Shown piece by piece: positions 21,310 to 30,000 of a DNA stretch of 37,555 nt. The DNA comes from Catajapyx aquilonaris (Eukaryota). The position numbers were made by a program, and so were the translations under genes. Under the pieces are notes generated by a model that ran no database searches, was not told the DNA's origin, and was given only the letters and a program-made list of their open reading frames with translations. Position 1 is the first letter of the stretch; each line of letters begins with the position of its first letter. The DNA lies in the NCBI GenBank assembly GCA_000934665.2, contig KZ538984.1, forward strand, positions 1 through 37,555, written 5' to 3'.

Positions 21310-24300
21310 CTATTTGAAGATTCCCATCAAGGATTCTATGGTTTGAGCCACGCAATCCAAAATGAGCTGAACTTGATATTCCGCAGTAGCACCTACAATC
21401 ATATTTAAAATGAGTGAAATGAAACTATAATAGTGGGCTAATTTTAAAATACTGTAGCAATACATTCTACAATACTGTATAGTGGGAAGCGTTATCTGCA
21501 AATTTTTTATTTTGTTATCGGCCTGGGTGAGATTATAATTTTTTCTTTTCAACAATGAATTTGTATCTCTCATTACACCTCACTCGTGGAATATTTTTTA
21601 TAATCATCAGTAGTATTTTTTGCATTCCAACATTTTGTTGCTACCAGTCGTTTAACTGCTATACTTACATGTTTTACAAGTTTTAGCGCAGAACTCTGAC
21701 ATGTAATAAGGATTTGTCTCGCATTTGCCTTTGTCGGCCATTTTTCGGCAATCGTTCTGATTGACATCCCAGCATACAGCTGAAATGTGCATAGTTCGTT
21801 CATGCAATTAATTCGACAGAAAATTATAATCATAAATTATCTGGCTGGTTCTGAACAAAGTACAGGGTGATTCTCTGAAATGGAAACCCAAACATTCTTC
21901 AATAACCTTGTATGGTTCCAGTTTAAATTGACATGAATTTACATGTAGGTTGGCAAACAAGCTCTGCCTAGAGATTAGCACATGTGCAAAAGTGCTTGGA
22001 TGCTGGAGGGGACAATTTTCGGTATATTATCTACGTATAGGCAGACATTGTTTACCAACATACAAAGTAAGGTGCATGTCAATTTTCATCGGGAACCATA
22101 CACTAGTTAAAGGGTTAGTAAGGAATGCTTGGGTTTCCTTTCGAGAGAATCGCTCTCTATATTCTTACGCGTGTCCTCTAGTACACAAGTGTTGCAGCTC
22201 TTGGCACAATACAAGGTCATCATCGCCAGATACTTCTCCGTTTGGCAGGATCCCTCGTTGGCCCATTTCTTACAGATACCTCCAGGATATGCATCTTCGC
22301 ACTGATCTGTCGAAAATGAAGCAATCTATCATTGTCGTTGCCTTGCATCTGTTGTAACTTGGTAATGCTCTGTTCTTACTGCATAATTTGCATGTCTTTC
22401 GACAGTACACTTGTATGAAAGATGTCAGTCTACCCGGTTTGCAAAGCCCTCTCGTTTTGTACTTGAGGCATTCATCGGCCATATCCTGGCACACCACTAT
22501 CACTTGAATTGCAAATAGAAATATTCCGGATTAAATTAGACAAGCATGTAAACCAATTATAGCATTTGTGTCAATACCATCTCCATGAGGTTTCAGCGAA
22601 TTGCATTTGTACAATCGGTTAATTTTATCCAGGTCACCCTGTAGAGATGCGAATAAGTTATTATATTAATATTATATTCCACTTCAAGCCCCCTGTTTAT
22701 GGCGTAGGAGGACGTACTGTACCATGTGATCTGGATATGGAGACCTTACAAGTAAAAATAATTGTTTGGTGGTACACGAAAAGATGCTGAATATACTCAC
22801 ACGACTCAAATCCTTTCGTTGGCCATACGTAGGGTTGCCTGGTCCTATCCACTTCAAGGTAGGCTTATTTTTGTCGATGGCAAAGTTATTCGGGCCGTAG
22901 TGTGTTATGGATCCTAAAATATTAAACGTAGATAAGGACAGTACAGTAGCTGCGAATGCCCTCAAAATCGTGTCAGAAACACTCATAATCTCGATATTTC
23001 CAACATTTTAACAGGCCCTTAAGAGCTCAAGTTTAAGTGGCAGAGCTACAAATAATTACTGTAATTTAATCTGCAGTTAACTTGCGTCATATACGGTATG
23101 TGTATTTATGGTACATCACTGTAATATGTCAATTAAAAGTCACCTGCATCATAGGGAGATCCGAGAGTGTCACACATAATTTCGTCACACGTCCAGAAGT
23201 TGTGCTGCATGTCTGTAAGTAAAGAGTTATATTAATAATTCAACCAGAGCCTCTTTTCTACTATGCCATACTAATTTTGTCACACGACATGAAATGATAA
23301 CAATATGAGTAGAATTCCCAGATTACAATCAGAGCATATATAATTATATTTATACAAAGTTTTACCTAAGAAAATCATTTGAATTGAACAGAAAGTTTCA
23401 AATTTTACTTGACACAATATTGTCCCACATGACTTCAATGAATTGATCTCTGTCTGGTCTGTTCTGCTCGTGGATGAAGGAGAGGATATGCATGATTTCA
23501 TGCATAACTGTTTGGTGTAATCTAAAGCATTTCGCCTCCAGATACAGTTCTTGCATTCCACCGACTCGACCCACATGGCTCCTGCACCTGTAAAAATTGA
23601 AATATTATTGGTAAGATGCACATGAAATTATACTAACTTGAAGAGAACTGATGAATATTCATACTGGATATTTATCATGTATCGAATCAACATCATATAA
23701 TGATTATCAATCTGAAGTACGTTCTATAGATGAATTTTTTTACGAGTGTAACCGAGTGCGCACCACAGTTCGTGCACCGGGTACGGTTGACATTAACGAT
23801 GATATCTAGGAAGCTCTTATAATCCAGTATCCAGTGCAATTAGCCAATATTTTAGACGAACCTGGAACAAATTAATACACAAACTTTTGAGGATATGTTC
23901 AGGACATGTCCTTGAAGCTGTAGACAAAGTTCCCAAAGTTTCCGATGACGGGTTTGGCCGCCATCTTGGAAAATGTAGCCGCCATCTTGGATACAAGGAT
24001 ACGTCAGGAATTGCTTTATTGTCGTCTCTCCATATGCCGAATTAGAACTTGTCTGATCGTCTCGCACTAAACCGCTATTGGTATATTAAAGGTGCACGTA
24101 TTTCCAACGCTACGATTGGGGAGAACAAAATGGCCGACGTTTGCGACGTCGCGTCGCCAAGGCTCTGGAACGAACCTCTTAGGCTATGGGCAGGGAGCAT
24201 AATATTATATTACGTACGAGGCGCAAACGTCTGTCGGCGCCTTTGATGTCCGCGTCTCTCTGTTTGGGGCCGTTGCCAAGGCTGGAGGCCATTTTGAGGT

Positions 24301-27027: not shown

Positions 27028-30000
27028 TCACCATTTGATGGTTCCCATCACGAATTCTGTGGCTTGGAGCACGCATTCCAAAATTAGCCGAACTTGAGAT
27101 TCCGTAGTAGCACCTACAATAATTTCAAATGAGTGAATTGAAAATATAATAGGCTAATTTAAAAATTGCATACATTCTACAATATAGTGCGAAGCGTTGT
27201 CTGCAAATGTTTTATTTTGTTATCGGTCTGGGTAGGATTATAATTTTTTCATCTCAGCAATGAATTTGTATCTAATCACACCTCATTCGTGGCGTAATTA
27301 TTTTTCTTATCATCAGTACCAGTAGTATTTTTTTTTGTATGTCAACATTTTGGTTCTACCAGTCGTTTATCTGCTTTACTTTTAACTCTGAATATACTTA
27401 CATGTTTTACAAGTTTTAGCGCAGTACTCGGACATGTAATGAGGATTTGTCTCGCATTTGCCTTCGTCGGCCATTTTTTGGCAATCGTTCTGATTGACAT
27501 CCCAGCATACAGCTGAAATGTGCATAGTTTGTTAATGTAATTAATTCGACAGAAAATTATAATTATATATTATCTGGCTGGTTTGGAACAAAGTACAGGG
27601 CGATTCTCTGAAATGGAAACCCAAACATTCCTCAAAAACTTTTAAGTATTGTATGGTCCCCGATTAAAATTTGACTTGAATTTACCCTTGTATGTTGGCA
27701 TACAAGGTCTGCCTAGACTCTCTAGAGTCTAGAGAATATACCGAAATGGTCCCCTGCAGCATCCAAGCACTTTTATTTGCGAGTCTGCATATTGGCGTAT
27801 TTATGTGCTAACTCGCTAGCGGAGGGGAGTTCGGTGGGAGCACGGGTAGGAGCGAGTAAGTGGCTGAGGAGGTGGTGGGTTTTTATTCTGGTGGACACTC
27901 CGCTCGAACGATCCATGCGGAGGAGGTGCAAAATTTTCTTTTGGCCACAGCTCAAAAACGGAGGAAAAATTTGCAATTCTGGTGATTTTTCGCTTCGCAA
28001 TTGTCGGCAATAGCTTTCCAACGAGCCGTCTTTCGACCCGCTACGACGTCGGGAAACCCGAGATCCTTTCTATCATGATTATATCCTCCTCCTCGGATAG
28101 GAGCTCTATACGCTATAATTTGCATACTGGATCATACGAGGGCTAGTCGGAAAGTAAGTTTCGCTGGACAGAGTAAAAGCGAGCATGGGCAGATGCGTTA
28201 ATCCTTCCTCTACTTTATAGGACGGGTAGGCGCCTTCTTGCAACTTATGCGCAGGCGCGGCATCCGTCCGACTAGACCGAGTCGCGAGCCGAGCGTGCCC
28301 GCTCTCATTCTGCCAGGAAATGTCATGACAGACTGAGAGTACTGGTCACATGGACTAAGAAAGAAGTTAGGACACATGAGGACACTGTCGGACACTGTCG
28401 GTAACTGCCGTGGCCAGCAGTTCGGGTAGTTTCGATATATTCTCTATAGGCAGACATTGTGTACTCTACATGTCAATTTTCATCGGGAACCATACACTAG
28501 TTAACAGTTTATCGAAGAATATTTGGGTTTTCTTTCGAGAAAATCGCTCTCTATATTCTTACGCGTGTCCTCTAGTACACAAGTGTTGCAGCTCTTGGCA
28601 CAATACAAGGTCGTCATCTCCAGATACTTCTCCGTTTGGCAGGATCCTTCTTTGGCCCATGTCGTACAGATATCTCCAGGATGTGCATCTTCGCACTGAT
28701 CTGTCGAAAATGAAGCAATCTATTGTTATCGTCGCCTTGCATCAGTTGTAACTTGGTAATTCTCTGTGCTTACTGCAGAATTCGCATGTCTTCCGACAGA
28801 ACACTTCTATGAAAGCTGTCAGTTTATCCGGGTTGCAAAGCCCTTTCTTTTTGTAGTCGGGGCATTCATCGGCCATATCCTTGCACACCACTATCACTTG
28901 AATGGTAAATAGAAATATTCCAGATTAAAATAGACAAGCAAGTAAACTATTATTGCATTTGTGTCAATACCATCTCCGTGAGGTTTCAGCGAATTGCATT
29001 TGTACACTCGGTTAATTTGTTCCAGGTCACCCTGTGGAGATGCGAATAAGTTATTACATTACTATTATATTCCACTTCAATGTCCATTTTTTGACATAGA
29101 AACAGGTACCATGTGAACTGAATATGGACACCTTACAAGTAAAATTAATGGCTGAAAACTCACAGGACTCAAATTTTCTCGTTGGCCAAACGTAGGGTTG
29201 CCTGGTCCTATCCACTTCAAGGTAGGCTTATTTTTGTCGATGGCAAAGTCATTCGGTCGGTAGTGTGTTATGGATCCTAAAATATTAAACATATAGATAA
29301 GGACAGTTGTAGAGTACCTGCGAATTCCCTCAAAATCGACATGATTTTGAGGGAATTATTATATTATTATTAAATATTATTTCCAACATTTTAACAGGCC
29401 CTTAACCCAGATTCAGATATGCATGGAAAGGTTTTTCTTGAATTATTGAACTTTTTTTTTGTTTCTATTAGTTCATATTAATCCCCAGAACACACAAATC
29501 GAGATAAAGCATTTTTCTGTATGCTTGTCTGCGAGAACATGGCCGTTCCGTATAATTAATTATGGGATGCTGGGAAAATGTAACCTATATTGTGGCTATA
29601 ATAGTTGTCGATTGCATTACCACGGCATATCTGCGTTAGAGCGAAAGCCAGATCAACAAATTACTGTAATAATTTAAACGGCAGTTAACCTGGGTTAGAT
29701 ACGGCCAGAAGCCATGTATTTCTGGCACATCACTAAGAATATGTCAATTAAAAGTCACCTGCATCATAGTGAGTTCCGCGAGTGTCACACATATAGTCAC
29801 ACCTCTTGAAGTTATTCTGCTTGTCTGTAAGTAAGAGTTATATTATAATTCAACTTTTCAACCACGCAATACAACTTATCTCATTTTGGTATATCTTCTT
29901 AATCTATATATTAGTTCGTTTGTGGAGTTGTTTGTTTGTATATAATTATTACATTAACAAAGTTTGACCTAAGAAAATAATTTGACTTGAACATAAAGTT

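Follow-up and report, generated by a model that had tools for sequence, protein, structure and literature searches.

Threonine instead of methionine at the Met-turn of two tandem astacin–ShK genes of Catajapyx aquilonaris

Main

The Met-turn methionine gave the metzincin zinc proteases their name, and why it is conserved has been debated over thirty years on the basis of laboratory mutants. Here we describe two neighbouring genes of Catajapyx aquilonaris that lack this methionine. A 37,555-nucleotide stretch of contig KZ538984.1 (assembly GCA_000934665.2, positions 1 to 37,555; hereafter the window) carries six tandem minus-strand genes, numbered A1 to A6 by coordinate, each of which codes for a zinc protease of the astacin type with three ShK domains C-terminal to it, as judged from a motif scan and from Pfam searches on single exons. 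A5 and A6 are without both of the name-giving metzincin elements, the glycine of the zinc motif and the methionine of the 1,4-turn, which are replaced by serine and threonine, respectively.

The conserved elements of astacins are HEXXHXXGXXH, EXXRXDRD and SIMHY, and the glycine and the methionine are treated as hallmarks in a review of the family (PMC9848320). A5 and A6 resemble canonical astacins (MEROPS family M12A) in their HExxHxx.xxHE..RxDRD block, in a tyrosine two residues past the turn position, in four conserved cysteines and in the layout of a predicted signal peptide and propeptide, whereas they depart from them in having Ser for the Gly of HExxHxxGxxH and Thr for the Met of SIMHY. 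The exon carrying the zinc motif (the zinc exon) matches the Limulus astacin zymogen (8a28, E = 7.4e-13) and crayfish astacin (1ast, E = 4.3e-12), and homology to the clan is clear from the profile and PDB matches despite the loss of both hallmarks.

The domain order is that of the ShKT-astacins of cnidarians, nematodes, crustaceans and chelicerates, in which a catalytic domain precedes ShK or ShKT domains (three here) and which likewise show lineage-specific expansions. Hydra HMP2 and HAS-7 are ShKT-astacins named in the same review (PMC9848320). Unlike the described members of this group, which have the canonical Gly and Met, A1 to A6 form a clade of their own in a maximum-likelihood tree (SH-aLRT 98), and the best identity of the zinc exon is 67% among the best 150 library representatives.

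Three natural proteins or protein groups provide the same turn context as A5 and A6. These are the SxTHY domains of lamprey three-domain ‘hatching-enzyme-like’ proteins (for example XP_075909979.1), of Anopheles culicifacies A0A182MVX6 and of Nymphon striatum KAG1704023.1. Unlike A5 and A6, these proteins belong to unrelated lineages, keep the Gly and have no ShK domains in the same arrangement. The A5/A6 form is a naturally occurring but rare variant within a known family, for which other animals offer a few uncharacterised precedents.

Metzincin pseudopeptidases (ADAM2, ADAM7, ADAM11, ADAM22, ADAM23 and others) are also clan members that are off the catalytic consensus yet retained, as A5 and A6 are. 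For nine such ADAM-family proteins (unc-71 and eight ADAMs), a review of metallopeptidase pseudoenzymes records that zinc ligands or the general base have been lost, with Met kept in all of them (PMC11266112). A5 and A6 are the mirror image of this pattern, in that the zinc ligands and the general base are kept and Met is lost. Among engineered enzymes, replacement of Met by Leu or Ser perturbs MMP-2 only mildly, and the M226L, M226A and M226I forms of Erwinia protease C are isolable and kinetically impaired, as summarised in PMC1266349.

A Met-turn without methionine

The plus-strand letters tgt at positions 22903–22905 and 29266–29268 correspond to ACA on the minus strand, within GGA TCC ATA ACA CAC TAC (G-S-I-T-H-Y). 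A first-pass annotation of the window had reported this threonine codon in place of ATG at both sites, and the sequence, the motif scan and the codon reading all bear it out. By contrast with A5 and A6, the other four genes have ATG at the turn, which reads GSLMHY in A1 and (G/R)SIMHY in A2 to A4. Because ATG to ACA requires two base changes and is common to both copies, the replacement arose once, before the A5/A6 duplication.

The remainder of the active site is kept. The zinc motifs read HEIMHILSFIH in A5 and HEIMHTLSFIH in A6, with the three zinc-binding His and the general-base Glu present in both, and both continue as HEQNRPDRD, which supplies the family-specific Glu after the third His and then xxRxDRD. 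The zinc-binding, or switch, Tyr is also retained. The catalytic domain as a whole combines HEIMH(I/T)LSFIHEQNRPDRD with SITHY, and has three cysteines in addition to the four that astacins conserve; the four conserved columns (positions 52, 73, 92 and 204 of the A5 mature region) are Cys in six of six genes.

The Ser of the zinc motif has a wider distribution than the Thr. It occurs in A1 (TCG, 2347–2345) and A2 (TCC, 6021–6019; both coordinates derived from motif positions), each of which has a normal Met-turn, whereas A3 and A4 keep the Gly (GGA). The first-pass annotation had counted the change from Gly to Ser together with the change from Met to Thr. The Ser codon (TCC) is indeed present in A5 and A6, but it cannot be counted as a feature of these two genes, because A1 and A2 combine it with an intact Met. 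GGN to TCN takes two base changes. On the tree, either the Ser arose at the root of the local family, with a reversion in A3 and A4, or it arose more than once; the relevant fork has an SH-aLRT of 94, and the tree leaves the base of the local family as a three-way split.

The intact frames, splice sites, zinc ligands and Tyr that had been noted for both duplicates hold for the full 12-exon models of A5 and A6. Each model comprises 422 codons with one terminal stop, 11 of 11 introns in each are GT–AG, and every A6 splice site lies at a position homologous to that in A5. Pfam Astacin (PF01400) scores 70.7 bits on the A5 zinc exon and 68.3 bits on that of A6 (gathering score, 22.5). The preceding exon scores 20.9 bits, slightly under this cut-off, and the 37-residue Met-turn exon by itself gives no PF01400 match. 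ShK (PF01549) is recognized on three A5 exons at 32.9, 37.9 and 28.5 bits (cut-off, 20.9), and the six Cys of each ShK domain are kept in A5 and A6.

Logan contigs from two DNA runs of one sample cover both ACA sites, and neither codon is hit by the 40 base differences listed out of 62. These contigs are not independent confirmation, because the sample may be the assembly's own. A search of sequencing runs for the stretch returned no RNA run among those listed. A third matched run (X5) covers only repeated intron elements (24211–24431, 25610–25830 and 26689–26921) and is uninformative on expression.

The residue that directly follows the zinc-ligand Tyr is Gly in A5 (22896–22894, minus strand) and Arg in A6 (29259–29257, minus strand). 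This site lies within the stretch that shapes the astacin S1′ pocket, so A5 and A6 may differ in substrate preference.

Constraint on A5 and A6

A5 and A6 are the products of a tandem duplication, in which blastn pieces align 20471–26200 with 26184–31834 at 79–93% identity. Coding bases differ between the two genes at 97 of roughly 1,263 aligned positions, and residues at 68 of 421. Across exons 2–12, the Nei–Gojobori method yields a dN of 0.081 and a dS of 0.088, for a ratio of 0.92. In the zinc exon the ratio is 0.29: non-synonymous changes account for 10 of 18, where a share of 0.81 would be expected (binomial P = 0.012). In the ShK exons the ratio is 1.5, with non-synonymous changes making up 28 of 32, which is not significant (P = 0.50).

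We also simulated unconstrained change by placing 97 substitutions at random on the A5 coding sequence in 20,000 trials. No stop codon appeared in 0.9% of the trials, all 27 cysteines, which are kept in each of A5 and A6, stayed intact in 0.3%, and 11 key catalytic residues stayed intact in 10.6%. The three outcomes were jointly met in none of the 20,000 trials.

Insertions and deletions give a similar picture. The non-coding sequence (introns plus 3′ flank) differs between A5 and A6 by 52 indel events per 3,022 aligned bases. Some of the intron alignments cross unrelated insertions, which inflates the mismatch figures, but the clean 3′ flank (16 events per 1,144 bases) has the same indel rate as introns and flank together. 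Over the 1,266 bases of coding sequence, 21.8 indels would be expected but only two occur, each three bases long and in frame. The Poisson probability of this deficit is 9e-8, or 1.3e-3 on the assumption that only one copy has drifted.

A5 and A6 are maintained, not decaying, because they have no stop, keep all cysteines, have few and in-frame indels and have a constrained zinc exon. By analogy, fast amino-acid change elsewhere while frame, cysteines and active site are held would be expected where selection is relaxed or diversifying on young duplicates of the secreted-protease or toxin-like kind. At four-fold sites 68–77% of positions differ between A5/A6 and A1 to A4, and because these sites are saturated the stem-branch dN/dS of the pair is not estimable from the window.

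Divergence between the two copies is uneven along the genes. The 5′ part is nearly identical, with no differences in exon 2 (67 bases), one in exon 3 (89 bases), none in exon 5 (118 bases) and none in the intron after exon 2 (72 bases), whereas the 3′ half differs by 6–15% (18 of 179 bases in exon 6 and 8 of 113 in exon 8, for example). This pattern points to probable gene conversion across the 5′ part. Exon 4 (25014–24918 in A5, 30966–30870 in A6) differs at 19 of 97 bases, compared with 10 of 202 and 4 of 94 in its flanking introns. This exon covers the region of propeptide cleavage together with the N terminus of the mature enzyme, and the hyper-divergent patch falls exactly at the activation site. 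Possible causes are diversifying selection and a short tract converted from another copy.

A decayed relative beside A5

A relic copy of the A5/A6 unit, now a pseudogene, sits immediately downstream of A5. Its exon-1-like piece (about 20650–20460) has a 7-nucleotide insertion and a 4-nucleotide deletion at the donor, exons 2–7 are absent, and a C-terminal catalytic exon lies at about 19806–19741. ShK exons for the relic were not found in the window. Its Met-turn exon reads GSIMHY, with the ATG retained at 20049–20047. The exon-1 region is 89–92% identical to its A5/A6 counterparts, and exon 8 is 66–67% identical to A5 and A6 versus 47–56% to A1 to A4. Judged by these identities, the relic is the closest relative of A5 and A6. 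As read from its sequence, it shows what neutral decay produces at this locus, namely frameshift, donor loss and exon deletion, and it shows Met to be the earlier state.

Met-turn and zinc-motif variants among astacins

Two samples were used to place the replacements among astacins. Sample 1 consists of the best 150 proteins among the 7,710 hits (E ≤ 0.001) that the A5 zinc exon obtained in an exhaustive phmmer search. It is biased to multi-domain proteins because domain scores add up. From these best 150 hits, 58 full-length astacin domains were cut and aligned with the six genes. Sample 2 derives from a profile search of a 90%-clustered collection (best 120 of 163 hits), from which 118 new proteins were read on a profile-anchored alignment.

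A regular-expression count over 184 zinc motifs of sample 1 found xHY-type turns with Met in at least 60 cases, Thr in six, Leu in six and Ser in one. The turn column of the 58 aligned domains has 47 Met, five Thr, five Leu and one Ser, and that of the 118 proteins in sample 2 has 112 Met, five Leu, one Ala (probably misaligned) and no Thr. Given five Thr in 58 and none in 118, Thr is rare, at a few percent at most, yet recurrent. The description of Met as nearly invariant, which the first-pass annotation had relied on, is therefore accurate as a statement of frequency but overlooks that Thr recurs as an alternative in nature.

Thr is carried by three-domain proteins of lampreys, by one protein of Anopheles culicifacies and by two of Nymphon striatum, all with the context S-[IV]-T-H-Y and intact zinc His. 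In 15 of 17 lamprey sequences of two clusters, S(I/V)THY occurs in domains 1 and 3 and SIMHY in domain 2, the remaining two being one-domain fragments; this T-M-T pattern spans Petromyzon, Lampetra and Lethenteron. At least three changes are needed on the tree to explain the five Thr rows from outside the window.

The zinc-motif Gly is more strictly conserved. It is present in 183 of 184, 58 of 58 and 117 of 118 sampled motifs, the exception in the set of 184 being a metagenome protein. Ser occupies this position in at most one of 184, none of 58 and none of 118 motifs, and is rarer than the Met-to-Thr replacement in these samples.

Across the 58 outgroup domains, 34 alignment columns show conservation of at least 80%, and A5 and A6 deviate at three of these columns and A1 to A4 at four or five; six of the 34 columns (three His, the Glu and the His-Tyr after the turn) carry no outgroup information because they were fixed by the row filter. 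The three deviations are Gly to Ser, Met to Thr and a Tyr column that is Ala in A5/A6 and Pro in A1 to A4. In the tree, A5 and A6 pair with an SH-aLRT of 99, and the sum of their stem (0.38) and tip (0.089) does not exceed the path lengths to A1 to A4, which indicates no acceleration.

Other searches added no closer relative. A metagenome scan with the zinc exon found a single locus, a bacterial astacin with SVMHY, and no orthologue, and a word-index search of longer proteins with the same exon gave two candidates, none of which scored. Literature searches for a Thr Met-turn in astacins gave no description among the papers listed. To our knowledge no SxTHY astacin has been assayed, and the names of the carriers imply no characterisation.

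Interpretation

We lean towards the view that A5 and A6 encode selectively maintained, secreted astacin–ShK zymogen proteases in which the floor of the zinc site has been remodelled and which are still active. According to this proposal, ATG would have changed to ACA in the common ancestor of A5 and A6, after its split from the Met-bearing sister that is now the relic and before the tandem duplication, and on a background already carrying Ser for Gly. The zinc site itself is preserved in its three His, general-base Glu, family-specific Glu, RPDRD, switch Tyr and disulfide Cys, from which we infer that the proteins bind zinc and cut peptides; their expression and secretion are likewise predicted. 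Thr would form a smaller, partly polar ‘floor’ under the His residues, with a probable cost in stability or with altered kinetics. The first-pass annotation had left the choice between a remodelled enzyme and a pseudo-protease. The former is favoured by the catalytic residues kept apart from Met and Gly, by the constrained zinc exon, by the few deviating columns and by the opposite pattern in ADAM pseudopeptidases, and the latter is less favoured.

Several observations weigh against an active enzyme. Two hallmark departures, Ser for Gly and Thr for Met, are combined in A5 and A6, whereas none of the sampled natural Thr-bearing domains carries the Ser and all keep the Gly. Because the natural SxTHY astacins are uncharacterised, they provide no demonstration of activity. 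The polar M226H, M226S and M226N mutants of Erwinia protease C could not be isolated, according to the summary in PMC1266349. The overall dN/dS implies that most of the protein surface evolves as if unconstrained, and 73 of 92 changes between A5 and A6 are non-synonymous against a neutral expectation of 0.80 (P = 0.79). The constraint tests may also be compatible with a very recent loss of function. Finally, the conserved propeptide Asp (in ADDII) is no more than a presumed zinc switch.

A more specific proposal, which we consider possible but doubtful, is that A5 and A6 are catalytically competent metzincins without Gly and Met because the earlier Gly-to-Ser change re-packed the floor of the zinc site. 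The bulky Met would thereby have become dispensable, with Thr taking over its place.

Alternatively, A5 and A6 could be pseudo-proteases, with an astacin fold that is dead or nearly dead through Ser and Thr together, and that has been kept as a binding protein, an inhibitor decoy or an ShK carrier. The combined alteration of two hallmark positions of the clan, the great rarity of Ser at the Gly position, the overall dN/dS and the ratio in the ShK exons would all suit such a role, and a binding scaffold would likewise need its frame and cysteines conserved. However, a pure scaffold needs none of the zinc ligands, general base, family Glu, RPDRD and Tyr, all of which are kept, and within the protein the strongest constraint falls on the zinc exon. 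The described metzincin pseudopeptidases lose those very residues and keep Met (PMC11266112). Furthermore, A1 and A2 have the same Ser in a site that is canonical in all else, and thus Ser alone is evidently compatible with long-term retention. On this evidence we regard a pseudo-protease as unlikely, and the remodelled, active protease is preferred.

It is less probable still that A5 and A6 are young unused duplicates, either unexpressed or pseudogenised too recently to have acquired disabling mutations. An overall dN/dS near 1 would be expected of such genes, a decayed copy of the same unit adjoins them, and gene conversion, a process able to mask decay, seems to have homogenised the 5′ parts. 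These points are opposed by the lack of a stop codon (P = 0.009), the retention of 27 cysteines (P = 0.003) and the indel deficit described above, as well as by the canonical state of 22 of 22 splice sites and the intact start codons and predicted signal peptides of both genes. The relic, moreover, shows that decay at this locus quickly yields frameshifts, donor loss and exon deletion.

It is very improbable that errors of sequencing or assembly, or a collapse of the two copies, gave rise to the ACA codons: the DNA runs containing the stretch all come from one sample, possibly the assembly's own, but the codon is common to two copies with 97 other coding differences, lies two base changes from ATG and shows no listed difference in the contigs of two runs.

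If A5 and A6 are indeed competent enzymes without Gly and Met, they would constitute, with the lamprey SxTHY domains, a natural experiment on why Met is conserved. Natural genes without Met, in which the rest of the zinc site is under selection, would indicate that Met is strongly preferred but replaceable, with Thr and Leu as nature's replacements. The A1–A6 cluster offers a test bed in which Met- and Thr-bearing paralogues, with and without Ser for Gly, are adjacent. For annotators, it is a caution that a single Met-turn residue is no ground for calling a metzincin dead. As a reading of gene sequences, the A5/A6 finding would for now rank as a modest curiosity.

Gene models and other features of the locus

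The models of A5 and A6 (Table 1) are predictions from sequence alone, built from reading frames, from alignment of A5 exons to the paralogues and from splice sites at homologous positions. The signal-peptide exons of A3, A4 and A6 were located by a scan for hydrophobic exons that start with ATG, and that of A5 by alignment of the homologous region. In A5 and A6 the hydrophobic exon 1 begins METCRLY, with a layout that resembles exon 1 of A3 and A4, and the propeptide sequence ADDII aligns with NDII of A3 and A4. Intron positions are common to all six genes. For exon 9, an alternative donor 24 bases further on was ruled out, as only the chosen site has GT at the homologous place in six of six genes.

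Table 1 Features of the astacin–ShK cluster in the window
Feature	Positions	Strand	Description
A5 Met-turn	22897..22911	minus	S-I-T-H-Y; Thr ACA 22905-22903; zinc-ligand Tyr 22899-22897
A6 Met-turn	29260..29274	minus	S-I-T-H-Y; Thr ACA 29268-29266; Tyr 29262-29260
A5 zinc motif	23446..23502	minus	HEIMHILSFIHEQNRPDRD; Ser TCC 23481-23479 instead of the clan's Gly
A6 zinc motif	30049..30105	minus	HEIMHTLSFIHEQNRPDRD; Ser TCC 30084-30082 instead of Gly
A5 gene (predicted model)	21652..26300	minus	12 exons, 422 aa: signal peptide, propeptide, astacin catalytic domain, three ShK domains
A5 exons 1-6	26300-26214, 25450-25384, 25311-25223, 25014-24918, 24818-24701, 23587-23409	minus	
A5 exons 7-12	23212-23144, 22913-22801, 22638-22578, 22502-22380, 22306-22169, 21779-21652	minus	
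A6 gene (predicted model)	27382..31934	minus	12 exons, 422 aa, architecture as A5
A6 exons 1-6	31934-31848, 31399-31333, 31260-31172, 30966-30870, 30775-30658, 30190-30012	minus	
A6 exons 7-12	29824-29759, 29276-29164, 29031-28971, 28896-28774, 28700-28563, 27512-27382	minus	
Near-identical A5/A6 parts	25450-25223 vs 31399-31172; 24818-24701 vs 30775-30658		
Relic pseudogene of A5/A6 unit	19741..20650	minus	Between A4 and A5, directly downstream of A5
A1 (exons 4-12)	2996-424	minus	Paralogue, exon plan as A5/A6
A2	6492-4371	minus	Paralogue, exon plan as A5/A6
A3	11635-8680	minus	Paralogue, exon plan as A5/A6
A4	18920-16165	minus	Paralogue, exon plan as A5/A6

Exon 7 (23212–23144 in A5) encodes two additional cysteines (C-x2-4-C) immediately ahead of the turn in A1, A2, A3, A5 and A6, a pair that A4 has lost. 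The pair lies outside the four conserved astacin Cys columns and suggests a possible family-specific disulfide.

A gap of 19 N in the assembly (9612–9630) lies in the A3 intron between exons 9 and 10 and leaves coding sequence untouched. High-copy repeated elements occur at 24185–24572 (A5 intron) and 5389–5764 (A2 intron), as well as at 25600–25885, all inside introns. Summed contig depth at the intron repeats reaches tens of thousands, compared with about 40 in unique sequence. The A5 and A2 introns have in common an inverted-repeat element of approximately 380 bases with 89% identity, and A5 intron 1 carries an insertion that is absent from A6.

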